This document shows positions 1 to 64,000 of a stretch of 64,000 bases of DNA, piece after piece. Source of the DNA: Deinococcales bacterium. Lineage in GTDB: Bacteria > Deinococcota > Deinococci > Deinococcales > JAAFIG01. Position 1 is the first letter of the stretch; every line of letters starts with the position of its first letter. Position numbers and translations under genes: made by a program. The notes under the pieces were generated by a model. It was not told where the DNA came from. It did no database searches and worked only from the letters and a program-made list of their open reading frames with translations. The stretch is from contig JAYWGM010000079.1 in the NCBI GenBank assembly GCA_043778225.1, positions 14,094 through 78,093 of the forward strand. Reading direction: 5' to 3'.

Positions 1-1959
1 CCGCCACCTACGCTAGGCATTGTTCGGGTACAACAAGCCGCCGGCGAGGTTTTACGCAGCGTGGCGGTCAATACCCAAGTGCAATTCTCGGCAACCCTCG
101 ACGGTCAGCCGACCACCAATGTCAGTTGGAGCGTGGTCGAAGGCGCAACTCGAGGCACGATGGATGCTAATGGCAATTATACCGCCCCAGCCGCCGTACC
201 ATCGCCCGCCACCGCCACCATTCGCGCCACCAACAAAAGCGTGACGACTCAATTTGGCGAATTCCAACTGACGGTCGTCACCAGTGGCGGAATCAGTGGC
301 ACAGTTACCCTTGGGGCGGGTTTACTTGGCGCTCCAAATGCCCAAGTCCAAACAGTACGTCTCGAGCCACAAGCTGTCCGTTCGGCTAAAGCCGATTGGA
401 ATGCGCCACGAATTCAAGGTGAAGTGCTGATTGTCAGCACCAGCAACCTGCAAAGCCTCTCGAGCCAAAGTGCCAGTTTACGCAGCACCAGCAGCAAATC
501 CGAAGCTGGGTTTGTTCGCGTCCGTGTTCCAAGTGGTACAACCGACCGCGCCTTTGCCGAAAAACTCGCCCTCGAGACCGGTGCAACCGTACAACCCAAT
601 TACCGTTACCGTTTACTTGAAGCCCCAAACGATACTTTATTTAATGACCAAGCCAACCTGACCCAAATAGATGCGGCTGGTGCTTGGTTTACCCAAGTCA
701 ATGTGCCAGATAACCTGATTGCTGTGTTGGATACGGGTATCAACGCCAGTCATCCAGACTTGGTGGGGCGGATTAACGCTGGTAAAGATTTTTGCCCAAC
801 CTTTACCACTTCTTGCACAGGCGAAGACAACGACCCAACCGAATTGACCGTTGCCCAAGGTGGCGGACACGGCACATTTGCGACTGGAATTGTTGGCGCA
901 ACCACCAATAACAAAGCTGGTATTGCTGGCATCACCCAAGGCGGCAAAATTTTAGCCGTTAAAGTCTTTGGCGCAGACGCTGGCGGCGCGATTGCCGATA
1001 CCGTAGCACTTTCAAAAGGCATTAAGTACGCTGCCGACCAAGGTTCAAAAGTGATTAGTATGTCACTTGGAGTCTGTATTACCCAAGCCAATGCCTTTGA
1101 CACCCCAGATAAACTGACCGAAAATGCAATTACTTATGCGGTTGGTAAGGGTGCGGTTTTGGTGGCTGCGTCGGGCAACAACGGTGTCAATCCAAATGCC
1201 CAATGTGGTACAGATACAGCCGTGCAATTTCCAGCCAGCAACCCGAATGTGATTGCCGTTGGTTCGGTCAACAACAGCAATGCTCGCTCGAGCTTTAGTG
1301 CCACAGGAGCAGCCCTCGACTTGGTTGCGCCCGGCGAAGCCCTGACCTCGTTGCGCTTTGACAATGCTGCTTATGAACAAAAAAGTGGCACAAGTTTTGC
1401 CGCTCCACAAGTCTCAGCAGTGGCTGGTTTAATTTTTGCAGCCAATCCAGCTTTAACCCGAATTGAAGTCCAGAGCATTCTCGAGTCCACCGCTAAGGAC
1501 TTAGGTACAGCTGGCAAAGACACCGATTTTGGGGCGGGTTTACTCCAAGCAGGAGCAGCCGTTTCTAAAGCCAAAGTTTTTTCAAACCCTAATCCAGCCC
1601 CAACCGCCAAAACCAGTGTCTATATGTACGCCGACCGTCTGCGTACTGCCCCAAATCCAACCGCAGGTTGTGTGGTCGTCGAAGCCAGCAACCGCAACTG
1701 TTACGACGGTGCAAGCACCTTGGCTGGGCGTGGCGTGGTCACGATCAACGGCACAAGTGGCGCAGTCGCCTACAGCATCACCCTCTCGAGAGATGGCAAC
1801 CCATTACAACCCGGTACATACCGAGTCGTGGCGTGTGTCAATAAAAACTCCAATGCTTTAGCCTGCGACCCCGGCGACCTTGGTGCAGAAAGTAACGTCA
1901 ACATCAACTATCCAGGCGGAACTTTACCGGGCATTAACTTGACCTTAGCTGCCCTCTAA
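1..1959 (+). CDS. Subtilisin-like S8 serine peptidase with N-terminal Ig-like region (5' end outside window)
   Basis: Frame open from base 1; catalytic motifs VLDTG, GHGT, GTSFAAP. Confidence 0.93.
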   Translation, partial: PPPTLGIVRVQQAAGEVLRSVAVNTQVQFSATLDGQPTTNVSWSVVEGATRGTMDANGNYTAPAAVPSPATATIRATNKSVTTQFGEFQLTVVTSGGISGTVTLGAGLLGAPNAQVQTVRLEPQAVRSAKADWNAPRIQGEVLIVSTSNLQSLSSQSASLRSTSSKSEAGFVRVRVPSGTTDRAFAEKLALETGATVQPNYRYRLLEAPNDTLFNDQANLTQIDAAGAWFTQVNVPDNLIAVLDTGINASHPDLVGRINAGKDFCPTFTTSCTGEDNDPTELTVAQGGGHGTFATGIVGATTNNKAGIAGITQGGKILAVKVFGADAGGAIADTVALSKGIKYAADQGSKVISMSLGVCITQANAFDTPDKLTENAITYAVGKGAVLVAASGNNGVNPNAQCGTDTAVQFPASNPNVIAVGSVNNSNARSSFSATGAALDLVAPGEALTSLRFDNAAYEQKSGTSFAAPQVSAVAGLIFAANPALTRIEVQSILESTAKDLGTAGKDTDFGAGLLQAGAAVSKAKVFSNPNPAPTAKTSVYMYADRLRTAPNPTAGCVVVEASNRNCYDGASTLAGRGVVTINGTSGAVAYSITLSRDGNPLQPGTYRVVACVNKNSNALACDPGDLGAESNVNINYPGGTLPGINLTLAAL

Positions 1960-1976
1960 AATACTTCTCCCTCGAA

Positions 1977-2005
1977 CCTCCTAGCTTTGGTTAGGAGGCT
2001 TTTTC
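1977..2005 (+). terminator. Rho-independent terminator
   Basis: Stem CCTCCTAGC/GTTAGGAGG followed by CTTTTT just after the S8 stop. Confidence 0.75.
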
Positions 2006-2057
2006 ATGCTTCTCATTGCCACAACGTATCATTGGATTCTCGAGCCAACTCGAGCTT

Positions 2058-3221
2058 ATGAAACGATTTCTTTTCCCGCTTTTACTTTTGCTGGCACTGG
2101 TGGCGTGCGGTGCTTGGACTTATCCAGCTTGGGGCGTTATCTCGAGATTTGCGGCTTTTCCGGCTGCGCCAAGTCAACCGATTACTTTTTTACTGGCTGG
2201 GGTTGGGCATCATTATGTCGGCTACCACACCCGAGGTACACTCGAGAACGATTTTACGCTTGGTTTGACCGACACAATGGTGCTGGTGCAACTGAATCCG
2301 ACGCAAAAAGCCATCAAATTGCTTTCGATTCCTCGAGACACCCACGTTGGGGCTGGCAACACCACGAGGGACAAAATTAATGCTGCCATGCTTGGTGGTT
2401 TTGACTCGAGTGTTCGGGCAGTCGAAGGGTTGCTAAACCTAAAACTAGATGGCTACTTATTTGTTTCGATTGATGGCACACGTGCCTTGGTGGATGCCCT
2501 AGGCGGGGTGCGGCTGTTTGTGCCACAAGCCATGCAGTACAAAGACAGCGCCGCCAAACTCGAGATTAACCTACAGCGCGGTTGGCAGGTCTTAAACGGC
2601 AAACAAGCCGAAGGATTTGTGCGCTTTCGCTACGATAATCTTGGCGATATTGGGCGCACCCAACGTCAACAGGCTTTTTTTCGGGCATTGCTCGAGAAAC
2701 TGCAAACCCCAGAAGCGTGGGTCAAACTGCCGCAGTTAGCCAAGGTCTTTGAAACCCACGCTCGCACCAATTTAACGCGGCGTGAAGTTGGAGCAGCTTT
2801 GGGTTTTTTGGTGCAGCGTCCTCGAGTCGATACTTTGTTGCTGCCCGGTGATTTTGGGCGTTTGGGGCGCTATTCGTTTTGGATTCCAGACGAAAATGCG
2901 GTTCGTGCCTTGGTCAATTCTAATTTACGCAACAACAAAGAAATCCAAGGTCGTGACCCGTTTGAACTGAGCATTGCAATTGTGGCTACCGATACGGCTC
3001 GAGCCAAACGCGCCCAAAGCCAACTGCGGGCGGCTGGGTTTCGTTTTGTCTGGCTTGCCGACTCGATTCCCGGCGACCCAACAAAAACTGAAGTGCTGTC
3101 CTCGAGCAACTTAATTGAAGCTCGAGTGATTCGTACTCAACTTGGTGCGGGAACAGAGCGAATCAGTGGTGAGGGTGTTTTGGGTGCAGATATAACGGTG
3201 CGACTTGGGACAGATTTTTAG
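2058..3221 (+). CDS. LCP (LytR-CpsA-Psr) family protein with LytR C-terminal domain
   Basis: N-terminal TM; TDTM, SIPRDT, KINAA, FVRFR, GDIGRTQRQQ motifs; C-terminal ADITVRLG; start placed at ATG 2058. Confidence 0.92.
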   Translation: MKRFLFPLLLLLALVACGAWTYPAWGVISRFAAFPAAPSQPITFLLAGVGHHYVGYHTRGTLENDFTLGLTDTMVLVQLNPTQKAIKLLSIPRDTHVGAGNTTRDKINAAMLGGFDSSVRAVEGLLNLKLDGYLFVSIDGTRALVDALGGVRLFVPQAMQYKDSAAKLEINLQRGWQVLNGKQAEGFVRFRYDNLGDIGRTQRQQAFFRALLEKLQTPEAWVKLPQLAKVFETHARTNLTRREVGAALGFLVQRPRVDTLLLPGDFGRLGRYSFWIPDENAVRALVNSNLRNNKEIQGRDPFELSIAIVATDTARAKRAQSQLRAAGFRFVWLADSIPGDPTKTEVLSSSNLIEARVIRTQLGAGTERISGEGVLGADITVRLGTDF

Positions 3222-3422: not shown

Positions 3423-3517
3423 GGTATCGGGGTAGCACATCAAAAGCATAAAAGCCTCGAGAAGCTAAGGCATAAGCTCGAGCCGAGAAACCCCGCCTAC
3501 ACTTGAGTTATACCAAA

Positions 3518-3937
3518 TTAACTTAATTTGGTATTAATCCGTTTTTTCACAACTGGAATATGTACTACCCATTGCTGAAGAATATGTTTGAGTGCTTCAG
3601 AGTGAAAATCAACTGCTCTATCGGTTGTGAACTTTATGCAAGCGCGATCTGGTCCAAGCCACTTGAGTATACCACTGGGGTCTTGGATGACACCAACAGG
3701 CATTTCATTCTTCTTTGCTCCCATATGAAGAATAAGCTGTAGAGGTGGCTTTCCGTTAAGGCGCATAGTCGCAAAATGCTCACCGATATAAAAGCTCGGT
3801 GCATTCCATTTAACCGCCTCACCAATCTTAGGGTCAATAGATAGGATTAACATACGAAGTTCTTGAATGTCTAGTTTCAAGGGATGGACTAGAGTTTCTA
3901 AAAATTGCTCTACAGATGGTTCTGTCGTGACTGCCAT
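3518..3937 (-). CDS. DUF1801 (YdhG-like) domain protein
   Basis: IGEAVKWNAPSF, LILHMGAK motifs; AT-rich; no CTCGAG seen. Confidence 0.8.
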   Translation of the reverse strand: MAVTTEPSVEQFLETLVHPLKLDIQELRMLILSIDPKIGEAVKWNAPSFYIGEHFATMRLNGKPPLQLILHMGAKKNEMPVGVIQDPSGILKWLGPDRACIKFTTDRAVDFHSEALKHILQQWVVHIPVVKKRINTKLS

Positions 3938-4054
3938 GGCGACCTCTTACGGATTGGTGCGTGAACCTCAAAGCGTTCAGATTTAAGCTCAAGAACCAAA
4001 GAATTGATATTTGAAACACTTGAACGACAAGGGAGATTTAGGGTTCAGTAGTGT

Positions 4055-4131
4055 TGGTGCGCCCGATCCGAATCGAACGGATGACCTAAGCGTTAGGAGT
4101 GCTTTGCTCTATCCGACTGAGCTACGAGCGC
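4055..4131 (-). tRNA. tRNA-Arg(CCT), copy 1
   Basis: Cloverleaf: acceptor GCGCTCG/CGGGCGC, anticodon loop CTCCTAA, TTCGATT T-loop, encoded CCA. Confidence 0.92.
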
Positions 4132-4292
4132 ATTATACTACGGCAAGAAGATTACCATGCCATTAAAGTTTTGTAAAAGTCCTAAAACTTGGCAATGTGG
4201 TGAAAATCTTTTATCGTAACAACGCAAAAGAATCTTGCACTCCGAAAAGAAAACCCTGTGAAATAGGAAGTTGTTTTGGTTCTTCTTTTTTA

Positions 4293-4359
4293 TTGACATG
4301 GTAAACGGCAATGACACTTAAAACGGAAACCACTGACAAACAAAACGGAAATTGACAAA
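4293..4359. repeat. Imperfect direct repeats TGACA-N4-5-AAACGGMAA (about 3 copies) abutting a tRNA 3' end
   Basis: tgacatggtaaacggcaa / tgacacttaaaacggaaa / tgacaaacaaaacggaaa / tgaca. Confidence 0.6.
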
Positions 4360-4436
4360 TGGTGCGCCGAGAGGGAATCGAACCCACGACCTAAGCCTTA
4401 GGAGTGCCTCGCTCTATCCTTCTGAGCTATCGGCGC
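4360..4436 (-). tRNA. tRNA-Arg(CCT), copy 2
   Basis: Cloverleaf: acceptor GCGCCGA/TCGGCGC, anticodon loop CTCCTAA, TTCGATT T-loop, encoded CCA. Confidence 0.92.
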
Positions 4437-4495
4437 ATGGCAGCAAGAAGTTTATCATACTTTAACGACTCTTTTTGCGCTAAACTACTGCCACT

Positions 4496-5188
4496 GTGGC
4501 AAAAGTTTTGGTGGTCGAAGACGAAGTTGAATTAGCCAATATCATCGCGGAGCATCTGCGCTCCGAAGGTCACTTGGTGGCACTCGAGGGCAATGGCGCA
4601 AAAGCCCTTGAACGAGCCAATCTCGAGGCATTTGATTTACTGATTCTGGATTTAATGCTGCCTAGCCTTGATGGTCTCGAGGTGGCTCGGCGCTTGCGGC
4701 GCTCAAGTGGCGCAACCAACGCCACTGTGCCAATTTTAATGCTGACCGCTCGAGCCGAAGAAACCGACCGTGTGCTGGGTTTTGAAGTTGGCGCAGACGA
4801 TTATATTGTTAAGCCGTTTAGCCTGCGCGAATTTCTGGCTCGAGTTCGGGCAATGCTGCGCCGCTCAAAAATTATCGAAGATGAAAGCCGCGTGGCAGTG
4901 CTGCGTTTTGGGCGTTTTGAACTTGATAGCAATGCCAGAGCCGTCAAAATTGGCGAAAAATTAACCGATTTAACGCCTCGAGAATACGAATTACTTTTAA
5001 TGTTGGCGCGTCATCCGGGGCGAACCTTTACGAGGGATTACTTACTCGAGCGCATTTGGGGAACAGAATACGATGGTTCTGACCGAGTCGTGGACACCAC
5101 CGTGGTGCGTTTACGGCGCAAGTTAAGCCATGAAGGCGAGCGGGTCATCAGTGTTTGGGGCGTAGGCTACCGCTTTGATGCAGCTTAA
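4496..5188 (+). CDS. OmpR/PhoB family response regulator
   Basis: REC (VVEDE, ILDLMLP, ADDYIVKPF) plus winged helix (LTPREYELL, VWGVGYR). Confidence 0.95.
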   Translation: MAKVLVVEDEVELANIIAEHLRSEGHLVALEGNGAKALERANLEAFDLLILDLMLPSLDGLEVARRLRRSSGATNATVPILMLTARAEETDRVLGFEVGADDYIVKPFSLREFLARVRAMLRRSKIIEDESRVAVLRFGRFELDSNARAVKIGEKLTDLTPREYELLLMLARHPGRTFTRDYLLERIWGTEYDGSDRVVDTTVVRLRRKLSHEGERVISVWGVGYRFDAA

Positions 5189-5270
5189 AAGGCAGGTGAA
5201 AAGGTCAAAAGGTCAAAGGGGAAAAAGGAGAAACATTGAACCTTTTAACCTTTTGACCCTTTAACCTTAG
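5187..5270. repeat. (GTNAAAAG)n array followed by its inverted complement
   Basis: gtgaaaag gtcaaaag gtcaaagg ggaaaaag ... ccttttaa ccttttga ccctttaa. Confidence 0.85.
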
Positions 5271-7302: not shown

Positions 7303-7304
7303 CC

Positions 7305-13728: not shown

Positions 13729-16047
13729 TTAGACCGGCAAGCGGAAACGCTCGAGGTTGGCAGCTAAGTTTTGTGCCAATTGACGAAGTTGTTCGGCGTT
13801 TTCTTGACCACTCTGACTCTGTTCACGGGCGGATTGTGCAGTTGCGGCAATCGTCTGAACGGCTTGAGTTACGGTTTGGACCCGACCGACTTGGTTGCGA
13901 GTAACATCCGAAATACGGGTTGCAAAATCTGAGGATTGCTGTGCCAACTGGGCGATTTGCTCGAGTTGATTACCGGCTTGCGAAGCGATTTTATAGCCCT
14001 GCTCGACTTCTTTTGTTCCGTCCTCAATACCAATCACCAAGCCCTGAATTTCGGTTTGAATGCTCTTGATTAAGCCAGCCACACGGCTGGTGGACTTTGC
14101 CGAGTCTTCTGCCAAGCGCCGCACCTCGTCTGCCACAATCGCAAACCGTGCGCCAGCTTCACCTGCACCAGAAGCCTCGATGGCGGCATTTAAGGAAAGC
14201 AAGTTGGTCTGGGCGGCAATACCCGAAATCGTATCGACAATTTCTTGAATCTCGAGCGAGCGGTCAGAAAGGCTCTTAACCGACTTAGAAATGTTACTAA
14301 CCTCACGACGAATTGAGTTCATACCCGTTAGGGTTTCCTGCACTGCCGCCTGCCCTTCACGGCTGGCATCGAGGGTGCGTTGGGCAATCACGGCGGTGTC
14401 GGAGGCGGTGTTGGTCAATTCCTCGAATTGCTGACTGACCTCGAGTGCTTGGGTCTGGGCTTCTTGTGCCACTTCTTCTTGTGAAACCGCACCTTGCACA
14501 ATGTTGCGACTGGCGTGGGTTAATTCTCGAGCGCCGGAGTTGACTTGTTCGGTGGTCGTCTGGACATCTTTAAGCAGGTAGCCAATTTCTTCGGTCATCA
14601 GGTTAATTGCGTCAATCACGTTACCGAGTACGTCTTCTGTAACCCGACCTTTTTTGGTAAAGTCGCCGCCCGAAATATCCATGGCGACATTCAAAAACTC
14701 ACCAATGTTCTCTTGGAGTTGCTTAGAGCGCATCGCTTCATCGCGTTGGGCATCCACAAAGTCGCGGAGTTGCAAAACCGAGTTGTTAAAAGCCACACCA
14801 AGCTGACCAATTTCGTCTCTTGAACGCACCGCCATGGTTTGTGACAAATCGCCCGAACCAAATTTCTCGGCAACTTTGACCATCTGCGAAAGCGGGTTGG
14901 TGATTGAACGGGTCGTTAAAAAAGCCCCCAACAGCACCAACAAGACCAGCACCAACAAAGCTCCAAGAACCAAACGTTGAGTATTTTGTAAATTATTAAC
15001 ACGTTCTTCAAGCAATTCATTGAGTTTGGCTAAAGCATTGTCATACAAGCTGTAGTAATTCACCAACAAGCGATTCATCCCACTGACAAAAGTTTCGATT
15101 GGATAGCGCCCAATTTCGGTTGAATCGCCACCTTCTTGAATGAAAGTGCGCGAAACAACATCATCGAGTGTCCCTTGGGCAGCGCGATTAAAACCAACCG
15201 TCTGCAAACTAAACTGACTGAGTTGCTTTGGGTTGGCAGTTGCCGCAAAGGCGGCGGAGCGCTCGGCTTCACTGGAATCGTCGCGAATACGTGCCAGCAA
15301 AACATTTAAGCGAAATTTTTCGTCTTCAACAATCCGCTTACGGGTCAAAATACCAACCCCCACACCTGCCACCTGACCAATGTCGTCCACAATGCTAGGC
15401 AACTTATTGGTGGTCAAATCTACGGTGTAAAAAGTATCGAGTTGTGGGTCAAGAATTAAGTTTGAGTTATTGGCAACGATTCGCAACAAATCAAACATTT
15501 CGACCCGAATTAAGCGATTATGGGCTTCAAAGTTGGCATCTACGGTGCTGGTGACCAGATTCTCTTCAATGCTGCGCCAGTTGGCTTTGACTCGCTCATA
15601 ACTTTCTTTGCTCTTAAAAGACCCACCAAAACGGTTATTCAAAGCATCGGTGCTTGCCAAAAGGGTATTGATTTCTTCGGCTTTCTTTTGCCGCGTCTGG
15701 ATTGCTGTACCGCCAGAACGCTGCTGGGTGACCAAACCACGGTGTTCAGAAAAACGTTGCAAAAGATTACCAAGGCTGCGAAGGTAAACTGCACCATCGC
15801 GTTCACGCAAACTAAAATTAATTTGCTGCTGTTGCTGATTTAATAAGAAAAATACCGCCAAACCCAAAGGGATGAGCAACGACAGCACCAAAAAAAGCAG
15901 ACGGGTCGAAACCAAAAAGCCGCCACGTGGGGCAGAAGTTGCCAGATCGCCAACCGATTCAAATTCAACCGAAGTGATGCTGGCGCTGGGTGATTCGGCT
16001 TTTTTAGCACCGAACAACGAGAATTTTGGTTTTTTGGTCGTGTTCAT
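13729..16047 (-). CDS. Methyl-accepting chemotaxis protein
   Basis: Two TMs, SNLILDP sensor motif, [29 protein letters not shown]. Confidence 0.95.
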
Positions 16048-16096
16048 CAGTGGACCTCCTGTGGCGTGTTCATCTTATGAACCTCCTGTGGCGTGT
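16039..16096. repeat. Tandem duplication (about 27 bp) of a Shine-Dalgarno plus start-codon region
   Basis: cgtgttcatc-N5/6-acctcctgtgg occurs twice. Confidence 0.85.
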
Positions 16097-16103
16097 GGTG
16101 ATT

Positions 16104-16571
16104 TCATGAAAGTACCTGAGCCGTAGGTTGTACAAAAACCACACGGCTGCTTTGGGGGGCAAAGACTGCCGAAAGTTGCTCCAAGACTTTTGGTAGATTC
16201 AAGAGTGGAATGGTGCTGTTGGCGTAGCGCATCGCCCCAAAGCAAATTGGCTCGAGGTCTGGCTCGAGCATGGCATTGGCGGCTTCAAATGCCACAAAAC
16301 CCAGAGCGGCATCAATTGCCACCCCAAATTGTCGCCCTTCAAACTCGAGTTGCACCGCAAAGTCATGTTTAGGGATTGGTAAACCAAGAAGCGGCTCAAG
16401 TGCCACAATTGGAATCACTTGTGAGCGCACCGCAAACAAGCCAAGCAAAGCACTGGCAGCCCGTGGCGCTCGGCGTAAATCGGTTAAGCCATGCACCTGA
16501 CGGGTGTATGCTCCAGCTATCCCGATTAAGGATTGCCCTATTTGCACCACACAAGCCCGTTGCACAATCAT
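16104..16571 (-). CDS. cheW: CheW-like adaptor protein
   Basis: APRAASALLGLFAVRSQVIPIV; FGVAIDA; IPLLNL; operon context. Confidence 0.85.
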   Translation of the reverse strand: MIVQRACVVQIGQSLIGIAGAYTRQVHGLTDLRRAPRAASALLGLFAVRSQVIPIVALEPLLGLPIPKHDFAVQLEFEGRQFGVAIDAALGFVAFEAANAMLEPDLEPICFGAMRYANSTIPLLNLPKVLEQLSAVFAPQSSRVVFVQPTAQVLS

Positions 16572-19720: not shown

Positions 19721-19836
19721 AAAGGAAAAAAGGAAAAAGCGACCCAGCCCGCAGGGTGCGTGTTTAGGGTCAAGAAAGGTTAAGAGTTTAGACGGGTTTA
19801 CTTTTAACCTTTTAACCTTTTGACCTTTTAACCTTT
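19716..19836. repeat. (GTNAAAAG)n inverted array interrupted by a 38-bp micro-element
   Basis: Purine arm 19716-19785; pyrimidine arm cttttaac/cttttgac 19801-19836. Confidence 0.8.
19739..19776 (+). mobile_element. 38-bp structured micro-element, copy A
   Basis: GCGACCCAGCCCGCAGGGTGCGTGTTTAGGGTCAAGAA; aligns with 58408-58446 (+) and 58329-58366 (-). Confidence 0.65.
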
Positions 19837-21785: not shown

Positions 21786-22457
21786 TTAACGCAACTCGAG
21801 CAGGTCAGCCAATGCCTGCGGGTTGACCACCCAAACACGTCGTTTCTCGAGCCGAATAAACCCCATGCGGTAAAACTCGCCAAGTTTACGCGAAACCAAT
21901 TCTGGCACAGTCCCCAATTCGGAAGCCAACAACGAATTTGGCGGCAACAACCAACCGCTCGAATCCGCATTCTCGAGCAAGACCCGCGCCACTCGAGCAT
22001 TCAAATCGGCAAAAAACACTTGGTCTACCCGACGCAACAACGCCCCAGACCGCGAAACCACAAAACGCAATAATGTATTGGCTAAAGCTGCATCAGAAGT
22101 CACCAACGCCTCGAGTTGCAAAGCATCCAGACTCAGCACCACACCCACCTCGAGCATTTGAGCAGAAACCGAATAACACCGTTCAGAAGACCATAAACTC
22201 TGGATACCCAGTACGGCTCGAGCCGACAAGACCGCCACCGTGAATTCTCGAGCTAGACTGGTTAAGCAAAATGTTCTGGCAACACCCGAGACAATCACAA
22301 AAACTCGAGAAACCGAATCGCCTGCGGCAAAAAGTAACTCGCCACGCTGCAAAGTTAAGCACATACTGCCCTCGAGAAGTCGCTCAAGCATTGGCACAGT
22401 CAGACCACGAAAAGCGGCTGTTCGCTGCAAAACAAGAACTTGCTGCTCGAGAACCAT
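21786..22457 (-). CDS. Crp/Fnr family transcriptional regulator
   Basis: cNMP-like domain (GELLFAAGD) plus HTH LASELGTVPELVSRKL. Confidence 0.88.
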   Translation of the reverse strand: MVLEQQVLVLQRTAAFRGLTVPMLERLLEGSMCLTLQRGELLFAAGDSVSRVFVIVSGVARTFCLTSLAREFTVAVLSARAVLGIQSLWSSERCYSVSAQMLEVGVVLSLDALQLEALVTSDAALANTLLRFVVSRSGALLRRVDQVFFADLNARVARVLLENADSSGWLLPPNSLLASELGTVPELVSRKLGEFYRMGFIRLEKRRVWVVNPQALADLLELR

Positions 22458-34924: not shown

Positions 34925-35373
34925 TGATTATCGCCTCCAAATCTCATTTTGCAAGGATAGTTATGGGTTCGTAACGCTTCATAAAAAGCATTCATACCAT
35001 TCCTTTCATCTTCTACCATCAATTGGTATAAATCTAAAACCATTTCTTGGAGTTCAAGAAGCGTTCTGCCCTGAGTCACGAGTTGAGGATGACTTTCTAT
35101 CTGACCAAGCCAAAAATCTTCTTCTTTCCAATACTGCATTGTGATTTTAGGAGTTATTACTCGAGTTTTATAGGCTCGAGAACTCCAAGGGCGACTTTGT
35201 ACATTTTCCAAAAAAACTTGCTCTTCTTCGGTGCTGGTTGCAAGGGCTTGAGCGGCAGCTTTTAGGCGTTCGCGTTTTTGTTTTTGCAACAATACTTGAA
35301 TTTCCTCGAGTTGCACAGGATTTGACTTTTGAACATCTTCTATTACTTTTTGCAACGTGATCATTTTAATCAT
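34921..35373 (-). CDS. HicB-like protein, apparently a chimeric fusion
   Basis: C-half YWKEEDFWLG..HP..TQGRTLLEL resembles HicB; unrelated-looking N-half. Confidence 0.65.
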   Translation of the reverse strand: MIKMITLQKVIEDVQKSNPVQLEEIQVLLQKQKRERLKAAAQALATSTEEEQVFLENVQSRPWSSRAYKTRVITPKITMQYWKEEDFWLGQIESHPQLVTQGRTLLELQEMVLDLYQLMVEDERNGMNAFYEALRTHNYPCKMRFGGDNQ

Positions 35374-37732
35374 CGCCTCCTGCCATAACTGCTATTTTGA
35401 CACTCGAGAGCGCTCCAGACAAATCTGAATTTAAGGCTGGGAGTGTAGGCGCAGAGACTGCATCGTCAATCCGAACAGTCACGGCTCGAGACTTCCCGCC
35501 GACCTCAACTTCGAGGTTAAATCCGTCACGCACACCCATTTTTTGTGCGTCGCTCGAGTTGACGGTCAGGTAATCCGCGCCGATACTTTGGCGAATACGT
35601 TCGCTCGAAAGCATATTTTCAGTCCACATTCGCGGTACAATCAGCACCGTTTCACCCGTGGTTGAACGTACAATTGGTGCGGAACGACTCGAGACTGTTT
35701 TACTTGGGAATGCACCCTCTACAGCAATTTTGTCCATTTCGAGACCAAATTTATCTTGCAGTATTCGTTGGGCGCTGCGAGTTCCCCGAATCTCGAGTTT
35801 GGCACTCATGGCATCGGACAGCACTTGTAAAGCCCCAATCATGTCCACGCCTTGTCCGCCATCCACAGCAGCCCCAGCCAGTGGCAAAAGCCGACCCTCG
35901 AGGTTCATGGTTGTGCCGCGTTTCTCATAAGCAGTTAGGGCGGGCAGGACAACATCTGCCTCGAGTGCCGCGCCAGTCAAAGTATGGGTGTGAACCACCA
36001 AAAGCTCGAGCGATTTAGGGCGATTACTGAGCATAGAGCCTGACACAAACAAGCCTTTTAAGCCATCCCACTGCCCAAAACTCCGACCATTCTTAGCTGG
36101 TACAAGTTCGAGTGTCTCGAGTCCAGCGCCGTTAGCACCTGCGGGTATCGGCATGATTTTCCCACCGAGTTTCTTGGCGGCAGCCAGCACTTTCTCGGCA
36201 TCGGAGGCAAGTGCGAAACTACCCAATACAATCACAGGGTTTTTTGCACCAGCCAAAAGTTTACCCGCCGCATTTGCTTGGGCATTGCTCGAGTCACTGC
36301 CTGACTTGGCTTGGTTAATAGCGCTGAGTAACTCGAGTTCAGAACCCACCGCGTACAAACTCGAGATTCCTGCGTGACTCATTTGTTGCACTGGAATTGG
36401 CGCAAACACCGCGAGTTTAGAGCGCTTTCTATCCATGCGTTCTTTGAGGCGCAAATCGGCTAACGGCGCACCATGATTAAATTGCACATCCGAAGAAAGA
36501 ACACCCTTTAAGCTCTCCTCTATTCGCAGGTACGCCGTGCCAGATTCCTCGTATAAATCCGCACCAATCACAATAATCGCGTCGGACTTGGCAAGGTCGG
36601 TAAAGGTTGCTCGAGGCACACCACCCAAAGCACTGTTGTAACGCGGGAAGTGGTCTACGTTAATCGTGGCAATGGTCTTAGCAAACGACTCGAGTGCCAC
36701 GCCCTCCTCTAGCGTAATGTCCGCACTGGTGTACAACCCAAGGCTTTTCGGCTCGAGATTCGCGGCAATAATCCATTCCACAGCCTCATCAAAGGTCGCA
36801 GGCTCGAGTTTGCCATTCTTACGCACCATCGGCACACGCACCCGAGCATCGGCATCCACCCATTCATGCCCGAAACGCTGCGCGTCAGAAATCCAAATTT
36901 CATTAACCTCTTTGTTATGCGCGGCTCGAATCCGTTCAATCCGCCCAGTTCGGGCATCCACCCAGATACTCGAGCCATCAGCGTTGCTCATATCGGTGGT
37001 TTGGGTGCGGTCATATTCCCAGTTGCGCCCACGGAATCTCGAGACGTTATCCAGCAGCGCTCCGACAGGACAAAGGTCGTTGATGTTGCCACTAAAATTC
37101 CCGAGTTTTGCACCCGCCAAGTCTTCGGATTGGTAGGAATCTATGAAAGTATGCCCACCGCGTTCAATAAAATCCAGCACTTCCTCGCCCGGAATCTCCT
37201 CGAAGTACCGCACGCAGCGCTTACAGTGAATGCAGCGTTCCTTGTCCAGCACAATAAAATCTGATAGTGCATGGTGTTTGTCGGCATGACGGCGGGTAAA
37301 TTCAAAACGCGCCTCGCCGTAACCATATTCGTAAGCCCGGTCTTGGAGTTCACACGCGCCGCCCTTATCGCAGGTAGGGCAATCGAGTGGATGATTGATG
37401 AGGGTAAACTCCATCATGCCAGCCTGAGCCTTCACTGCCGCATCGGTTGTGGTTTTAATTACCATGCCTTCGGAAGTTGCCAACGTACAACTTGCCACTG
37501 TACCTGGAAAGAAAAACAGTTTCGGCACACCATTCTCGAGAATCCAAGAACCATCAGGATTCTTACGCGGCGAACCCGCTTCCACCAGACACATTCGACA
37601 CGCACCAATTGGCGAAAGGTACTCGTTCGAGCAGAAATAAGGCACATCGAAACCCGCTTGAAAAACAGCATCCAAAGCAGATGCACCATTAGGGACTTCG
37701 ATTTCACGATCATTCACGATTACTTTTGGCAT
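35366..37732 (-). CDS. nuoG: NADH-quinone oxidoreductase subunit G
   Basis: [39 protein letters not shown]. Confidence 0.96.
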
Positions 37733-38143: not shown

Positions 38144-38638
38144 TCATGCTTCACGCTCACTTTGCATCAGCTTAAAATGATTTTTGCCTGCTGAGAACAA
38201 CACATCAAACTCAAGGAAAAAATTCATTGTCCCCAGTATCAAACGTGCATCTAGACTTTGCGACCATGCAAAAACCAGCTTGACTGGCTTAAAATCTGCC
38301 ACTCGAGCTTGAAGTACCACACCTCGAGCTTTAGCTTGGGCAAGGTTGCCAGTCAGTGTTACAGGAATGTTTTGCTGATTCCAATCCAAGCCCAACTCGA
38401 GTCCGAGTTGAAATGGTAAGACATTCACGGTTGCACCCGTTGCAAGCAGAGCAATCGCCTCGGAGCGGCTTGAGCCAGATTGCAGGCAAATTGGCAGAAA
38501 CGGGGCAAATGTGTTTTCGGGAGTTTTTTGGAATTCAAAAGTCATGGTTTTCATGGCTCGAGCATAAGGCATGGAGCAAGGATGAACTGCACTTGCAAGA
38601 AGTAGGGTTAAAAAATAGGTTTGCAAGGCTTGATTCAT
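38144..38638 (-). CDS. Retropepsin-like aspartyl protease family protein, probably catalytically dead (alternative start 38554)
   Basis: ALLATGATVNVLP (DTGA changed to ATGA), LILGTMNFF. Confidence 0.65.
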   Translation of the reverse strand: MNQALQTYFLTLLLASAVHPCSMPYARAMKTMTFEFQKTPENTFAPFLPICLQSGSSRSEAIALLATGATVNVLPFQLGLELGLDWNQQNIPVTLTGNLAQAKARGVVLQARVADFKPVKLVFAWSQSLDARLILGTMNFFLEFDVLFSAGKNHFKLMQSEREA

Positions 38639-38659
38639 ACTTTCCTCCTTCTTCTTGAG

Positions 38660-39589
38660 CTAGGCAGCTTGATGTGCTACTTGAATGGATTGTGGTTCTT
38701 CTTGTGCGATCATGACACTGAATAAATCCGTTTGTGGGTTGGCTTGGTTGATTCGAGTTTGTGCCATTTCTTGGTATTTTTTGATTAGTTCGATGCCTAT
38801 AAATTGGCGTTGTAATTTTGTTGCGACAACTCCGGTTGTGCCTGAGCCTGCAAATGGGTCAAGAATAACATCGTGTTCTCGAGTTGAGGCGAGAATGCAG
38901 ATTTCGACGAGTTTTTCTGGGAAGACCGCAAAGTGTGAATCTCTAAATTTACTCAAGGGTATTTGCCATACAGTGCGTTTATTTCTGCCTTTAGGGTGGA
39001 ATGCTTGATCCCAGCGTCCGTCGTGAAGATTGCTGCTCCCTGCATTTTTGCCATTTTCGGGTGTGCCTCCTTCTTTGCCAAAATGGTTTCGTCCGCCTTT
39101 CATTCTGGATTGTTCGGTGAATGTAACGTGCGGTTCGCGGATAGCATCGGCATCGTAGTAATAATCTTGGTTGAGGGCGAATAAGAAAATATATTCATGG
39201 TCGGTGGTTGGACGGTTTTTGATACTCGAGGGCATGGCGTTGGGCTTGTGCCAAATAATGTCGGAACGCAGTAACCAACCATCATCTTGGAGTGCTAGTG
39301 CCACGCGCCATGGAACACCCAGTAAGCATTTGTCGCGGTAAGTATCGCCAAGGTTGAGCCAGAGTAAACCATTAGGTTTGAGTTTTTGTTTTAAGGGCTG
39401 AAAAATACTAACCAAGTTCGCCACATATTCTTGGAGTGTTGCTTCTTGTCCAATTTCCGCTTGATTTGGTTCTTCGGCGTAATTTCGTAAGCCAAAATAT
39501 GGTGGACTGGTGATAATGGCTTGAATAGACTGATTCTCGAGGTTAGGCGCAATCATTCGGGTATCCCCAAGGAGAACTTGATTGTTCAT
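38660..39589 (-). CDS. Beta-class amino DNA methyltransferase, likely N4-cytosine
   Basis: TSPPY near N-terminus, DPFAGSGTTG near C-terminus; DIIWHKPN, HEYIFL. Confidence 0.92.
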   Translation of the reverse strand: MNNQVLLGDTRMIAPNLENQSIQAIITSPPYFGLRNYAEEPNQAEIGQEATLQEYVANLVSIFQPLKQKLKPNGLLWLNLGDTYRDKCLLGVPWRVALALQDDGWLLRSDIIWHKPNAMPSSIKNRPTTDHEYIFLFALNQDYYYDADAIREPHVTFTEQSRMKGGRNHFGKEGGTPENGKNAGSSNLHDGRWDQAFHPKGRNKRTVWQIPLSKFRDSHFAVFPEKLVEICILASTREHDVILDPFAGSGTTGVVATKLQRQFIGIELIKKYQEMAQTRINQANPQTDLFSVMIAQEEPQSIQVAHQAA

Positions 39590-40551
39590 AATGCTTGTCC
39601 TTGCAATACTTTTTCGATGAATTGATTGAGTTGCACTTGTTTGGCTTGGTCAAAACCCATAAAGACATTGGGGTTCATGTTGAAATGAAAAACCAAGTCA
39701 ATTTGATTTTGAATCGTTTCGAGTTCATGCACAGACCAATTCTCGGCAATAATCACCACCACAATAAAACAATTGGCAGATTGAATATCGCTAATGGCAT
39801 TCATGATGTCTCGAGTGAACAGATGCGAATGCCCACCACCTTCGGTTTCTCGGGTTTTAACGGGAATAAAAATTTGTTGACTTTGGTTATTCTCGAGGAC
39901 TAAATTGGCAGATACATCTATGGTGTGATTTCCAACTTTGATTTGCTTATCAGCTATTTGAATTTCTTTGAATTGACCATAATTACCGTGAATCGAGTGA
40001 TACCATTGCAGGGCTATTCCCAGACCAATTCGCACATCAGCTTCTATTTTATTACCACTGATACTTCGTCTTGAACCTTCTAAACGATCAATCACCACTT
40101 CCCGAACAGCCTGCCATTCAAAACTCTTAACGGCTGACCTATACTCAAAAATCAGTTCGATTAAACCATCAGTTTCGGCTGTTATTTTCTCGATTTTGAC
40201 GAGCTTCTGCATTCTCGAGATCAGTGGTGCAAGTCGTTGTTGTGGAGCATCCCGTATCATCCATGCAAAAAAATAGAAGCAGGCTTTTTTATGCGGGTAT
40301 GGTCTGCCGACCCCATCAAACAGAAATGGTTTTTGTTGATTGCTTTGGTCATAGCAAGCCATGATTATGCTTTTAAGTTGTTCTTTTGAAGCAGTGAGTA
40401 GCAATTCATTCAACGTTAAGTGCGAACCTGTGACTTGTCGAGCAGTTCTTTCAATCCAATCATAAAAAGGTTTGGCTTGGTCGGCTAAAAGTGTTAGCTC
40501 AAGCAAGCGGTAATGTGCGATATTGACTTGGTGAACAATGATTTCTTTCAT
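39586..40551 (-). CDS. Putative type II restriction endonuclease
   Basis: ATGA-coupled to the MTase; ID..(x)n..PVKT nuclease-like core; LEGSRRSISG segment. Confidence 0.65.
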   Translation of the reverse strand: MKEIIVHQVNIAHYRLLELTLLADQAKPFYDWIERTARQVTGSHLTLNELLLTASKEQLKSIIMACYDQSNQQKPFLFDGVGRPYPHKKACFYFFAWMIRDAPQQRLAPLISRMQKLVKIEKITAETDGLIELIFEYRSAVKSFEWQAVREVVIDRLEGSRRSISGNKIEADVRIGLGIALQWYHSIHGNYGQFKEIQIADKQIKVGNHTIDVSANLVLENNQSQQIFIPVKTRETEGGGHSHLFTRDIMNAISDIQSANCFIVVVIIAENWSVHELETIQNQIDLVFHFNMNPNVFMGFDQAKQVQLNQFIEKVLQGQAL

Positions 40552-40673
40552 TTCCACCACTTCAAATGAGTTTGAGAATACCGAAAGCTAAACCCATCAT
40601 GCAGCTCGAAACTCGAGCTTTGTGGCTTTTGGAATACATCATTTTGCATCATGGGTTCACCTCCTCCTCGAGT

Positions 40674-42032
40674 TTATTCGTCTTTCCAACGATTGCCGTA
40701 CCCTGTGTACATGGGTTTGCCGTGTTGAGCAATGTATTCAAATTCATCTCGGAAATGCTTGAACGCACTTTGCACGGGCATGATGCACGAGTCAGCGAGT
40801 AAGCAAAATGATTTTCCGCGAATGTTGCCCATTAAATCCTCGAGGATTTTCACATCGTTAGGGTCGCCTTGTCCTGCAATCAGTTTTTGGAAGATACGAT
40901 TCATCCAAGTGCCGATTCCTTCGCGGCATGGGGTGCATTTGCCGCAAGATTCATGTCCATAGAAACGCACGAGGTTGTACATCATGTTGACAATATCAGC
41001 ATTTTTGGGAATAAGGATAATACCACCAGTACCAAGGCTCGAGCCTTTGCTAGAAACATTTTCGTAATCTGCTCCCATATCTAGTATTTCGTCAGTAAAA
41101 GGTAAGATTGGCATACTCGAGCCGCCGGGATGAAAGCCTTTTATCTCCTCGGTTGGTCCGCCGCCCCATGTGTAAATGATTTCGCGGTAAGTCGTGCCAA
41201 GCGGTAATTCGTATACTCCGGGGCGCTTAACAGGTCCAGAAATATGAAACAAGAAATTACCCTTACTTTTTTCTGTTCCCATGCTCGAGAACCAATCTGC
41301 ACCATGGCGCATAATCAGGGCAGCCGAGGCAATACTGACGACATTGTTGACGGTACTCGGCATTCCAAAAATTCCGGCTTGGGCTGGGAACGGTGGTTTT
41401 AGGCGCGGATTGGCTCTCAGCCCCTCGAGTGAATTCATCAGTGCGGTTTCTTCGCCGCAAATGTATGCCCCTGCGCCACGATGCACAAAAACTTCCATGC
41501 TCTTACCAAAGCCAAGCGCATTATCGCCAAGAAGCCCTGCGGCTCGAGCTTCGGCAATGGCAGCGTTTAAGCGGTTTGCGCCAAGGATATACTCGCCGCG
41601 AATATAAATATATCCAACATTGGCGCGAATGGCGTGCATTCCAATCAGCATTCCCTCGAGTAACTGGTGTGGGTCGGCTTCCATCAAATAACGGTCTTTG
41701 TACGTTCCGGGTTCGGATTCATCGGCGTTACAAACCAAGTAATGCGGTTTGCCATCTTCTTTGGGCATAAACGACCATTTTAAGCCCGTCGGGAAACCCG
41801 CGCCGCCACGTCCTCGCAGACCAGATTTCTTTACTTCGTCTTGCACACTTTCTGGTGTTCCAGCCAAGGCGCGTTTTGCACCTTCGTAAGCCCCATGACG
41901 CAGTGCATACTCGAGCGTCCACGAATTATTCTGTCCAACGTGTTCGTACAATCTTGGTTTGAAACGCGGGTCAAGACCACTGGTAATGCTGGTCGGTTTC
42001 TCGAGAACGGGTGCATCGGCAACTAAAGTCAT
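40674..42032 (-). CDS. nuoF: NADH-quinone oxidoreductase subunit F
   Basis: [49 protein letters not shown]. Confidence 0.97.
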
Positions 42033-43029: not shown

Positions 43030-43448
43030 AAGCTCACCTTTTGTGTACCTCGAGAAAGTAAGTAAATTTGTTTAGCTGCCACCAGCACAAGGCTTATGGC
43101 AAAGAATGGAAAAACGATTTTCAAATTGTCTATGTAACCAACTGGGCTTGGAAAAATAAATAAGATGATACTCGCAGCGATACCAAGGGCTAACAACCCA
43201 GTAATGAGCATTTTTGAACGGGTGTTTTCTCGAGCTACACTGACATAAATTAGGCTTATGCAGGCTAATAATCCGCAGAGTGAGATTACAAAAAGTAAAA
43301 TAATTCCAAGTCCATCGTTATTAAATTTGCTACCAAAAAAGGTTATCGTGGAATAACAACCTAAAACTGCCCAAAAAGCAAAGTATAGCGCAGGCAAAAC
43401 GCCAAACAGCACGTCAATAACTCGAGATGATGGGCTGTTCCAATTCAT
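43026..43448 (-). CDS. Hypothetical 4-TM membrane protein
   Basis: Four hydrophobic segments; TAATG overlap with the Uma2 gene. Confidence 0.75.
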   Translation of the reverse strand: MNWNSPSSRVIDVLFGVLPALYFAFWAVLGCYSTITFFGSKFNNDGLGIILLFVISLCGLLACISLIYVSVARENTRSKMLITGLLALGIAASIILFIFPSPVGYIDNLKIVFPFFAISLVLVAAKQIYLLSRGTQKVSL

Positions 43449-44170
43449 TACCACCACCTGATTTGCACATCTAGAAACTCGAGTGGCGTGGCTAGTTGTC
43501 CTTTTTCGAGCTTAACTTGATGCAAGAATTCCACACCGTCTGAGTCTGCATAAATCTCAAGTTGTTGGGTATTTGTATTCAGCACCCAGAGTTCTGGGAC
43601 GCAAGCTCGAGCATAGGCTGAAAGTTTGTAATCCCAATACTTGGGTTTTTCGGCTAAAACTTCGACCAATAAGTACACATCGCCGAGAGTAGCGTTGTGG
43701 TGATTGTATCGTTCCCGAGGGGCTTGTAGAATAGCAATTTCTGGGGACACCACAAATTTTGCACCAAGTTCGATGTCGTAACCGCCCCGAGCAACAATAT
43801 CGTCACCTAACCCTCTAAGCATTTCGGTGCTTAAATCAATGGCTGCATTGGTTTGGGCTTGTGTGGATATTGGTGTTTTGAAAAAATGTCCGTTAATCAG
43901 TTCGACACGCTGGTCTGGTGTGAGTATTCTCGAGTGATACAGTTTTTTCATGTCGTCAGCGTCGTAAGTAACGAGAATTCCTTCGCCCCAGACTTGACCG
44001 TTTAAGAGTTCAATAGGTTTATAAAAAAGGATTTCTTGGGCAAACATTTCGTAAAACTGCTCGAGTTTGAATTGGTGTAAGTCAGACTTAAATTCTCGAG
44101 TAAAGTCCACACTGTTATTGACTGCTTGGGTCAGTCGTTCCATGTATTCTTGCTCGGCAGTTTGACTCAT
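43448..44170 (-). CDS. Uma2 family (DUF820) endonuclease-fold protein
   Basis: RVELING, LLVEV, K...YARA.VPE.W.LN. Confidence 0.85.
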   Translation of the reverse strand: MSQTAEQEYMERLTQAVNNSVDFTREFKSDLHQFKLEQFYEMFAQEILFYKPIELLNGQVWGEGILVTYDADDMKKLYHSRILTPDQRVELINGHFFKTPISTQAQTNAAIDLSTEMLRGLGDDIVARGGYDIELGAKFVVSPEIAILQAPRERYNHHNATLGDVYLLVEVLAEKPKYWDYKLSAYARACVPELWVLNTNTQQLEIYADSDGVEFLHQVKLEKGQLATPLEFLDVQIRWW

Positions 44171-61020: not shown

Positions 61021-61455
61021 TCACCTTACGAAACCAATACCAGCTTGATATTGAATTGGCTGTCCTACTGGAATACCTTTTTCGCCCCAGTCGTACTCTG
61101 GTAAAGCCTCACCCATGTCTGCCTCGAGCCAGCGCTGGGTTTCGGTGTCTAATTCATGGGCTGAAATCAGGGCTTCGTACTCTGCAATTGGTAGCAGTGC
61201 AAAGGTTTTTTTGCCTTGTTCATTGTAAACAAATTGGTGTTGGCTGGTACTCATACTTCCTCCTTTAATCTGCGGCTGCCCTTGCTCGAGCCGAGCCATA
61301 AAACTTTGAATATCTAAATTCTCGAGTTCACCTGTGCTGGTGTTAAATCGTCCTAGCATTTCATTAGCTACATGATCCGAAATTTGTGTGGCATTGCGTG
61401 GCACAAAGTCGAATGCCAGTGTATCGCTGGTTTTGTCGTATGAAACTGTGGTCAT
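61021..61455 (-). CDS. In-frame fusion of a DUF2283-like module and an antitoxin-like module (own SD and ATG at 61254)
   Basis: YDKTSDTLAF N-half; QHQFVYNEQGKKTFALLPIAEYEAL C-half; AAGGAGGAAGTATG inside. Confidence 0.65.
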   Translation of the reverse strand: MTTVSYDKTSDTLAFDFVPRNATQISDHVANEMLGRFNTSTGELENLDIQSFMARLEQGQPQIKGGSMSTSQHQFVYNEQGKKTFALLPIAEYEALISAHELDTETQRWLEADMGEALPEYDWGEKGIPVGQPIQYQAGIGFVR

Positions 61456-61518
61456 GTTTTACCTCCTCGTCTCGAGTCTAGCGGATTTTGTTAGTGGCTT
61501 GGGCTTGGGGCAGGGCAA

Positions 61519-61542
61519 GGGCGAGGCAAGCCCCGCCCTTAC
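61519..61542 (-). repeat. GTAG-type REP (GTAA variant)
   Basis: One mismatch from 30195-30218. Confidence 0.8.
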
Positions 61543-61551
61543 GGTTTGGGT

Positions 61552-63822: not shown

Positions 63823-63848
63823 AGTTACTCCTGAGTTAAAAATAGAAT

Positions 63849-63865
63849 TTTATACTAAGTACAAA
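63849..63865. promoter_or_regulatory. Imperfect palindrome upstream of fadN; candidate repressor operator
   Basis: TTTATACT-A-AGTACAAA (8-1-8, one mismatch). Confidence 0.45.
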
Positions 63866-64000
63866 TTGTAGAACACTTGGGGCGCAAAATCTAGTTGCTC
63901 GAGTCTAAGAGCGTGTTTATAAAGTGGGTAAAGTCGGTCAGAATTAAGCTGTGAAACAAAAAACCTATACCAGTAGCCTTACCCGTGAACAGTTTAAGCG

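Follow-up and report, generated by a model that had tools for sequence, protein, structure and literature searches.

Highly iterated palindromes (HIPs) are known from cyanobacteria, in which HIP1 is the word GCGATCGC (Elhai 2015, PMC4390886; Xu, Lawrence and Durand 2018, PMC5861425). HIP1 is listed at 300-2,700 copies per Mb and co-occurs with conserved orphan methyltransferases whose target is the word or its core (PMC4390886). Selection on HIP1 has been argued from site conservation, a periodicity of 10-90 kb has been reported, and a role in chromosome structure has been proposed (Xu 2018, PMC5861425); the word also has been argued to be a methylation-dependent uptake watermark, or transformation signal (Rodriguez-Cruz et al. 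2026, PMC13756078). Alternate cyanobacterial HIPs include GGCGCC in Calothrix PCC 7103, as well as GCsGC and rCCGGy (Elhai 2015, PMC4390886), and the text of that paper, which treats cyanobacteria only, contains neither CTCGAG nor the string "Deinococc". Here, we describe the hexamer CTCGAG in a 64,000-bp stretch of DNA from a Deinococcales bacterium (the window) and in the assembly from which it derives (G000), and we show that it belongs with the highly iterated palindromes, as a new HIP-type word in another phylum.

Uptake sequences provide the second point of reference. The uptake signal sequences (USS) of Pasteurellaceae and the DNA uptake sequences (DUS) of Neisseriaceae are asymmetric 9-12-mers with informative flanks that occur approximately once per kb. 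CTCGAG resembles them in its over-representation in all reading frames, its imprint on peptides, its scarcity in foreign DNA, and the possibility of molecular drive, but it is a bare palindromic hexamer with no asymmetric core and is about 6 times denser. CTCGAG and HIP1 are alike in several respects: both are short palindromes, hyper-abundant genome-wide in all frames and between genes, clade-wide with exceptions, retained above background between relatives, and scarce in foreign DNA. CTCGAG differs from HIP1 in its word and phylum, in being a hexamer rather than an octamer, and in its greater density (about 6,170 versus 300-2,700 per Mb), and, whereas HIP1 has its orphan methyltransferases, no enzyme that we profiled tracks CTCGAG. 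As the alternate HIPs indicate, the part played by HIP1 can fall to another palindrome in a given lineage, even to one of six letters, and related genomes can differ in which word they use; those cases are single-genome replacements within the HIP1 clade, whereas CTCGAG is fixed across 5 genera and occurs again in an unrelated genome (G253). No published report of CTCGAG hyper-abundance in Deinococcota was found in the literature searched, which leaves out most subscription journals.

Methylation of this same word has precedents. The S3 Table of Blow et al. 2016 (PMC4752239) lists active type II N6-methyladenine (m6A) enzymes specific for CTCGAG in three cultured Deinococcales, with 94.6% of the sites methylated in Marinithermus hydrothermalis, 94.1% in Meiothermus chliarophilus, and 99.5% in Meiothermus ruber. 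The cognate-nuclease column of that table is blank for the three enzymes (M.Mhy14884I, M.Mch9957IV, and M.Mru1279II), and the S5 Table annotates them as Eco57I-type and HsdM-like, i.e., gamma-class (PMC4752239). These methyltransferases thus share the word and the order with the genomes described below and have no nuclease listed. The same source describes an orphan CTCGAG methylase in Nocardia, where the motif forms origin-proximal clusters (PMC4752239).

CTCGAG in the window and the genome

The sequence-only reading of the window had claimed that CTCGAG recurs throughout and in all frames, and counting bore this out: 409 sites are present (6.4 per kb) and every 2-kb bin is occupied, compared with a mean of 9.3 sites (standard deviation 3.0, maximum 18) in 100 dinucleotide-preserving shuffles. 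A recount of the Crp/Fnr-type regulator gene gave exactly the number of copies that had been tallied there by eye (Table 1). Other palindromes of the window were rare, with no GAGCTC, 2 GGCC, and 34 GATC. The window is part of contig C79 of a metagenome-assembled genome (MAG) of 4.03 Mb (107 contigs, 48.7% guanine plus cytosine (GC), marker completeness of 89%) that contains 24,877 CTCGAG in 4,029,277 bp, or one per 162 bp. The placement of this MAG agrees with an assignment to Deinococcota. Markov-corrected counting across the genome and by frame had been proposed as a check; the observed/expected (O/E) ratio was 26.7 when base composition set the expectation and 15.1 under an order-2 Markov model, with all three frames contributing. 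CTCGAG is the top hexamer of the genome, 2.9-fold ahead of the next, and it alone among palindromic hexamers exceeds 3 times expectation. The order-4 Markov ratio was 1.16, a value that is uninformative because the enriched pentamers themselves derive from CTCGAG.

Genes were called crudely as the longest open reading frames of at least 100 amino acids (3,531, covering 89.7% of the genome), a procedure that may mis-frame in GC-rich outgroups. Sites in coding DNA were distributed over the three frames as 13,202, 4,493, and 4,639, with a further 2,531 in non-coding DNA, and the densities of the two compartments were the same (6.18 per kb coding, 6.11 per kb non-coding). When synonymous codons were shuffled so that every protein and the global codon usage were kept, 1,851 sites were obtained compared to 22,402 observed in coding DNA, a ∼12-fold excess. 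Codon choice shifted sharply at the word: CTC made up 74.7% of Leu codons within Leu-Glu versus 9.2% elsewhere, GAG made up 78.5% of Glu codons within Leu-Glu versus 22.6% outside the word, and 69% of the 19,108 Leu-Glu dipeptides were spelled CTCGAG. For the two remaining frames, the word was present in 56% and 42% of the tripeptides compatible with it. The equal non-coding density, the presence in all frames, and the excess over the shuffle indicate that the enrichment is neither a codon or dipeptide effect nor a single-frame one; the two outcomes named beforehand as fatal to the claim, disappearance after codon and dipeptide correction and confinement to one frame, were thus both contradicted.

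The word is exact. Its flanks are almost uninformative (base frequencies of 0.17 to 0.31), and the nine classes of one-mismatch neighbours number 290 to 2,762 each against 49,754 for CTCGAG (both-strand counts), each being 18 to 170 times rarer. Transition types are the commonest neighbours, as expected if these are mainly decayed CTCGAG. A longer true motif was ruled out by the uninformative flanks, with the order-4 ratio only mirroring the internal pentamers. On these counts, an exact word with blank flanks reads as the signature of type-II-like dimeric recognition.

Neighbouring sites suppress one another over short distances. The probability of a next site was reduced ∼8-fold below 10 bp and 2-fold at 10-20 bp, and beyond 20 bp it changed little apart from a slight rise around 70-100 bp. 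Spacing was close to Poisson past about 25 bp, with a coefficient of variation (CV) of 0.91-1.0, so regular spacing was ruled out and only the short-range exclusion stood. A spacing of exactly 6 bp had zero occurrences in the genome; such a spacing would create GAGCTC, a word nearly absent from it. The share of Leu-Glu dipeptides spelled CTCGAG rose with the distance to the nearest other site, from 31% (below 12 bp) through 52% (12-24 bp), 67% (24-48 bp), and 74% (48-96 bp) to about 78% (96-384 bp), and it was 13.5% beyond 768 bp. The lower use of CTCGAG within about 50 bp of a further copy indicates that the benefit of the word saturates.

CTCGAG is the one palindrome that runs opposite to a purge of such words from the genome. 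In G000, 32 of 64 palindromic hexamers fell below 10% of the order-2 expectation and 41 of 64 below 30%, with counts of 1 for GGGCCC, AGGCCT, and GACGTC, 3 for GGCGCC, 24 for GAGCTC, 131 for GGCC, and 2,061 for GATC. The palindromic hexamers below the 10% threshold numbered 13 of 61 in G013 (a closed genome of the same family and another genus, 60.5% GC), 8 of 64 in G019, 0 of 47 in G021, and 1 of 47 in G028, and the purged sets partly differ among the genera of G000, G013, and G019. The extreme purge in G000 implies long exposure to many restriction systems. GAGCTC, which is CTCGAG with its half-sites swapped, is nearly absent from most genomes of the family (f1; 0-25 sites), the exceptions being G010 (568), G012 (161), and G002 (114). 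As a side observation, G010 and G002 are the same two genomes that had no match to either of two C5 methyltransferase queries.

Retention, protein imprint, and distribution of CTCGAG

Genomes of the same genus share just 72-80% DNA identity with G000. Since these congeners are too diverged, retention was measured in genus g5 (83-92% identity) by aligning three contigs of G017 (56 kb) as the anchor with five congeners, after high-scoring segment pairs that overlapped or fell below 78% identity had been dropped. CTCGAG sites of G017 were conserved in 81-89% of pairwise comparisons versus 44-55% for other hexamers; the retention counts pool five phylogenetically non-independent comparisons, so p-values derived from them are overstated. 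Where the other taxa agreed, terminal-branch change affected 47 of 630 CTCGAG sites compared to 6,296 of 32,071 for all hexamers, and C-to-T or G-to-A transitions accounted for 32 of the 47 losses. Conserved Leu-Glu dipeptides kept the CTCGAG spelling in 410 of 442 cases (93%), versus 443 of 844 (53%) for dipeptides of Leu plus a 2-fold residue, and Leu-Glu written in other codons kept its spelling in 58 of 140. In aligned non-coding DNA, CTCGAG was retained at 67 of 84 sites (80%) compared to 4,488 of 9,777 (46%). The force thus acts on the DNA word and not on RNA or protein.

Creation was elevated along with retention. The singleton share of CTCGAG (3.0%) was the lowest of 152 hexamer classes (median 18.6%), and gain-like singletons per neighbour occurrence (28/540, or 0.052) ranked first among 3,611 hexamers (median 0.014), by a small margin over the runner-up (0.047). 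A strict terminal-branch test for gains yielded just 2 events in 101 opportunities, too small a number to judge by. Between close relatives in g5, no other hexamer matches CTCGAG in either retention or creation. Across genera, the positions of its sites are conserved only loosely: at conserved Leu-Glu, G013 used CTCGAG in 49.8% of cases where G000 does and in 37.0% where it does not (odds ratio 1.69), and the G000 sites common with G013 amounted to 26%, 18%, and 18% by frame.

CTCGAG also has added Leu-Glu to proteins. The most over-represented dipeptide of G000 is Leu-Glu (O/E 2.33), with Glu-Leu at 0.97; the Leu-Glu value was 2.16 in G013, 1.18 in G019, 1.49 in G021, and 1.04 in G028. In reciprocal-best-hit alignments (120 with G019, 68 with G021 and G028, and 180 with G013, after pairs with fewer than 100 aligned residues were dropped), Leu-Glu was present only in G000 531 times versus only in G019 256 times, and only in G000 314 times versus only in G021 and G028 120 times. 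The same ratio for control dipeptides ran in the opposite direction (EL 0.84, LD 0.66, VE 0.49, and AE 0.59). AT-rich dipeptides such as KI and KN showed larger asymmetries still, which arise because the genomes differ in GC and are unrelated to CTCGAG. G000 has less Glu in total than G019 (5.9% versus 7.3%), which makes the gain specific to Leu-Glu. Less-conserved proteins carried more Leu-Glu than conserved ones (2.26 versus 1.42 per 100 amino acids; identity terciles against G013, rho -0.25), no such trend was found in the G019 alignment set, and the most conserved tercile still contained 6.3 CTCGAG per kb.

Across the order, the trait is graded. In a first survey, for which densities were computed from rounded genome sizes, 19 of 19 f1 genomes (5 genera) carried 4.3-6.8 CTCGAG per kb and 22 genomes of four sister families carried 0.03-2.9 per kb. 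In a wider survey of a 251-genome sample of the phylum, at least 3 per kb was reached by 8 of 246 non-f1 genomes. Genera g13, g18, and g19 of family f5 had 1.4-3.5 per kb, g9 had 0.6-1.6 per kb, and 92 g7 genomes had 0.01-0.27 per kb. In family f3, G253 (genus g36) had 24,536 CTCGAG in 3.5 Mb (7.0 per kb) with just 30 GAGCTC, G197, of the same genus by label, had 0.3 per kb, and G196 (genus g35) had 3.6 per kb. A 39-kb sample of G253 (51.5% GC) reproduced the full syndrome, with 7.35 sites per kb overall and 9.2 per kb in non-coding DNA, no GAGCTC, a Leu-Glu O/E of 2.35, and 81% of Leu-Glu spelled CTCGAG; its proteins were ∼46% identical to those of G000, no nearer than other outgroups. A 96-kb sample of G197 (49.6% GC) had 0.30 per kb and a Leu-Glu O/E of 1.20, and a G196 sample was intermediate (3.5 per kb, O/E 1.88). 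G253 and G197, putative congeners that share a genus by label, thus differ 23-fold in density at similar GC. The enrichment is graded and patchy across the order rather than a character of a single family, and it behaves as a gain-and-loss trait. Pattern scans of viral and genomic contigs for three clustered sites returned, among the matches listed, mostly GC-rich DNA that also holds GAGCTC.

Candidate enzymes and explanations

The interpretation that we tentatively place first is that CTCGAG is a self-mark linked to methylation, which a dimeric enzyme specific for the word would read and which recombination, uptake, or repair would favour. The word would be the recognition site of a homodimeric DNA enzyme, the likeliest reader being an N6-adenine methyltransferase with no restriction partner, of the kind at work in cultured Meiothermus and Marinithermus. 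Marked sites would identify DNA as "self", like a watermark, in transactions such as uptake or recombination of kin DNA or post-replicative repair, and alleles with CTCGAG would be preferentially kept or copied. This self-mark interpretation is put first because of the exact word, the action at the level of DNA, the retention and creation of sites, the saturation, the patchiness, and the m6A precedent. The logic of recognition and the saturating benefit come directly from the genome counts; the enzyme and the process are what we infer from them.

G000 is rich in DNA methyltransferases, with N6_N4, N6_Mtase/Eco57I, C5, and D12 family matches, and candidates were profiled over 41 genomes or over the 251-genome sample. 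The sequence-only reading had suggested that enrichment be correlated with methyltransferase presence; this failed to find a partner, as no profiled methyltransferase orthogroup tracks CTCGAG density. Its parallel with HIP held, and the methylation or repair cause that it attached gained no backing from these profiles, with no profiled enzyme tracking the trait and no Vsr found. The following results count against a methylation-linked mark. None of the enzymes profiled by orthologue presence tracks the trait: these were nine methyltransferase or restriction-modification (R-M) enzymes of G000, two methylase groups from outgroups, and two additional classes of enzyme. Such profiles read no specificity from sequence and may miss a non-orthologous replacement. 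The TaqI_C-type enzyme L010 occurs in 3 of 19 f1 genomes (orthologues only in G001 and G003) and has a type II nuclease partner; L012, with its sole homologue in G006 (43%), has a nuclease partner as well. Both C5 enzymes (L016 and L018) have a patchy distribution, and neither query found a C5 match in G002 or G010. The N6_N4 class was not found in the closed genome G013, and the D12 class, although present in 17 of 18 other f1 genomes, is patchy and consists of several lineages. An outgroup M.TaqI-like family, which matches the solved M.TaqI structure (E 1e-126), is confined to G025, G022, G026, and G038 and has no orthologue in the 19 f1 genomes; the CTCGAG density of its carriers is only about 1 to 2.9 per kb versus 4.3-7 in CTCGAG-rich genomes, so such a methylase is not sufficient. 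A type IIG-like fusion enzyme encoded on contig C93 (Table 1) occurs in 2 of 19 f1 genomes, its full-length orthologues being found in G009 and G253 and also in G167 and CTCGAG-depleted g7. In addition, G000 encodes a MutS-like protein and a MutL with an endonuclease motif (motif matches only), by which mismatch repair probably needs no methyl mark, and terminal losses of CTCGAG in g5 (47) exceed its gain-like singletons (28). Pure loss from a still denser ancestor is a possible alternative origin of the pattern. The methylation precedent is real, yet sequence comparison did not carry it over to f1.

Further candidates were set aside. Two gamma-class groups of 540-580 amino acids and the HsdM-like enzymes of 480-500 amino acids in other f1 genomes have no G000 orthologue. 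The D12 enzyme L021 is found only in G003, G005, and the outgroup G034, and G000 lacks any counterpart of a 282-amino-acid D12 orthogroup whose members in G013, G001, and G019 are 54-61% identical; by its pattern of bit score and length, this orthogroup is also missing from G003, G006, and G007. The C93 enzyme gene lies among housekeeping genes, between infB/SDR and a DAG-kinase gene, with the native motif density, and its orthologues are spread over three families. A search for the XhoI-type nuclease PF04555 gave no match, but a control also gave none in 14 control genomes, hence the result is uninformative; 16S was not found in the MAG. As a separate observation, a locus for a 482-amino-acid HsdM-like methyltransferase is 95.7% identical in DNA between L392 (G017:C263) and L393 (G016:C976) while the rest of the two genomes is at 87-92%, which suggests recent gene exchange within the genus.

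A narrower form of the self-mark interpretation, which we consider doubtful, is that CTCGAG is a kin-DNA watermark, read when methylated, that steers natural transformation and recombination in Deinococcales through a horizontally mobile reader. Acquisition of the reader would start a genome-wide build-up of CTCGAG, and a mobile reader would explain the full syndrome in G253 and its absence in the congener G197.

Among the rival explanations, an uptake or recombination signal spread by molecular drive without methylation, with machinery that prefers CTCGAG-bearing DNA as modelled for USS and DUS, is also doubtful. It would fit the genome-wide occurrence in all frames and the distorted peptide content (Leu-Glu O/E 2.33), the scarcity of the word in foreign islands (used for just 13.5% of Leu-Glu at distances above 768 bp from the nearest site), the saturating benefit, and the additional Leu-Glu of less-conserved proteins, seen in the G013 set only. 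Heavy DNA traffic is suggested by how extremely other palindromes have been purged. Deinococcales is an order known for natural competence. On the other side, the uptake signals known to date have an asymmetric core of 9-12 bp and flanks that carry information, unlike a bare palindromic hexamer, the G019 set shows no conservation trend, and no receptor candidate was identified.

We consider it unlikely that CTCGAG is an architectural or replication-linked site bound by an abundant dimeric protein (nucleoid-associated, segregation, or replication-timing), with selection holding a minimum density. Consistent with such a role, density is conserved more than position (another genus has just 18-26% of the G000 sites in common; positional odds ratio 1.7), the short-range exclusion is compatible with a footprint, and parallels exist in the role in chromosome structure proposed for HIP1 (Xu 2018, PMC5861425) and in the origin-proximal clusters of Nocardia with its orphan CTCGAG methylase (PMC4752239). 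The near-Poisson spacing beyond about 25 bp (CV 0.91-1.0) shows no regular array, however, and no candidate protein was found.

Neutral biased repair, in which repair of a very-short-patch type turns near-cognate mismatches into CTCGAG, with no function for the word itself, appears improbable. Retention and creation at synonymous and non-coding sites fit a conversion bias, as does the predominance of C-to-T and G-to-A transitions among the losses (32/47). However, no Vsr (PF03852) was found in G000 (a MAG that is 89% complete), C5 methyltransferases are not universal in f1 (G002 and G010 lacking a match to two queries), and the deamination neighbour CTTGAG/CTCAAG is the commonest rather than being depleted (2,762 versus 1,963 expected by base composition). 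Moreover, a site-autonomous bias does not predict that sites suppress one another to about 50-100 bp.

Finally, the possibility that CTCGAG is a by-product of codon or dipeptide usage, with CTC-GAG merely a frequent Leu-Glu codon pair, can be dismissed, along with base composition as the cause: the CTC-GAG frame does hold 59% of coding sites, but both the non-coding density and the synonymous shuffle rule out such an artefact, CTC and GAG are minority codons outside the word, and the trait is present from 49% to 60% GC.

Window features and the value of a second iterated palindrome

The coordinates of individual features are given in Table 1. In the window, the longest CTCGAG-free stretch falls in a chemoreceptor gene with a single Leu-Glu among the first 500 residues of its product; same-genus homologues hold 3 to 5 sites there. 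The second longest contains a pair of tRNA genes. One frame of CTCGAG forces TCG-AGN codons, by which usage of AGG/AGA may rise; any tie to the duplication of tRNA-Arg(CCT) is pure speculation. A complete type II R-M islet interrupts the respiratory complex I operon and has a CTCGAG density of 4.1 per kb, lower than in the window on average. The islet is an ordinary mobile R-M unit and not the agent behind CTCGAG. Nearby, a putative endonuclease gene of the Uma2 family lies between nuoE and nuoD. Four short stretches (40-130 bp) have matches of 72-97% identity at dozens of scattered places across all five genomes of the genus and resemble small families of dispersed repeats.

Table 1. Positions of features in the window and of one gene elsewhere in G000
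Feature	Position	Strand	Remarks
CTCGAG field	1-64000	.	every 2-kb bin with 3 to 22 sites
Second-longest CTCGAG-free stretch	3477-4583	-	1,106 bp; contains two tandem tRNA-Arg(CCT) genes
tRNA-Arg(CCT) tandem pair	4055-4131 and 4360-4436		inside 3477-4583
Short stretches of repeat-like DNA	near 4730-4866, 5195-5270, 14158-14220, and 19737-19835		
Longest CTCGAG-free stretch	14526-16251	-	1,725 bp; N-terminal part of chemoreceptor gene
Crp/Fnr-type regulator gene	21786-22457	-	cNMP_binding and HTH_Crp_2; 11 CTCGAG in 672 bp
nuoG	35366-37732		flanks R-M islet
Type II R-M islet	38144-40560	-	between nuoG and nuoF
PDC-M52B (islet)	38144-38638	-	
N6_N4 methyltransferase (islet)	38660-39589	-	
REase_II (islet)	39586-40560	-	
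nuoF	40674-42032		flanks R-M islet
Uma2-family putative endonuclease gene	43448-44170		between nuoE and nuoD
Type IIG-like fusion	G000:C93:55695-59720 (L562:3696-7721)		1,341 amino acids; HSDR_N_2, N6_Mtase, Eco57I, weak TaqI_C

For work on these organisms, CTCGAG is a strong binning and contamination signature for MAGs, in which its absence flags imported DNA. Because the word distorts codon usage and Leu-Glu content, composition-based inference on these genomes needs care. After three decades HIP1 still lacks an explanation, in part owing to its restriction to a single phylum. The Deinococcales offer three handles with no HIP1 equivalent: a graded series within one order from depleted through intermediate to hyper-abundant genomes, a pair of genomes (G253 and G197) that are congeneric by label with and without the trait, and cultured relatives that methylate CTCGAG itself. 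The contrast between G253 and G197 implies that the determinant is findable by gene-content comparison. A second, independent, and denser iterated palindrome thus allows a comparative test of methyl-directed repair, uptake watermark, and chromosome structure as functions of such words.

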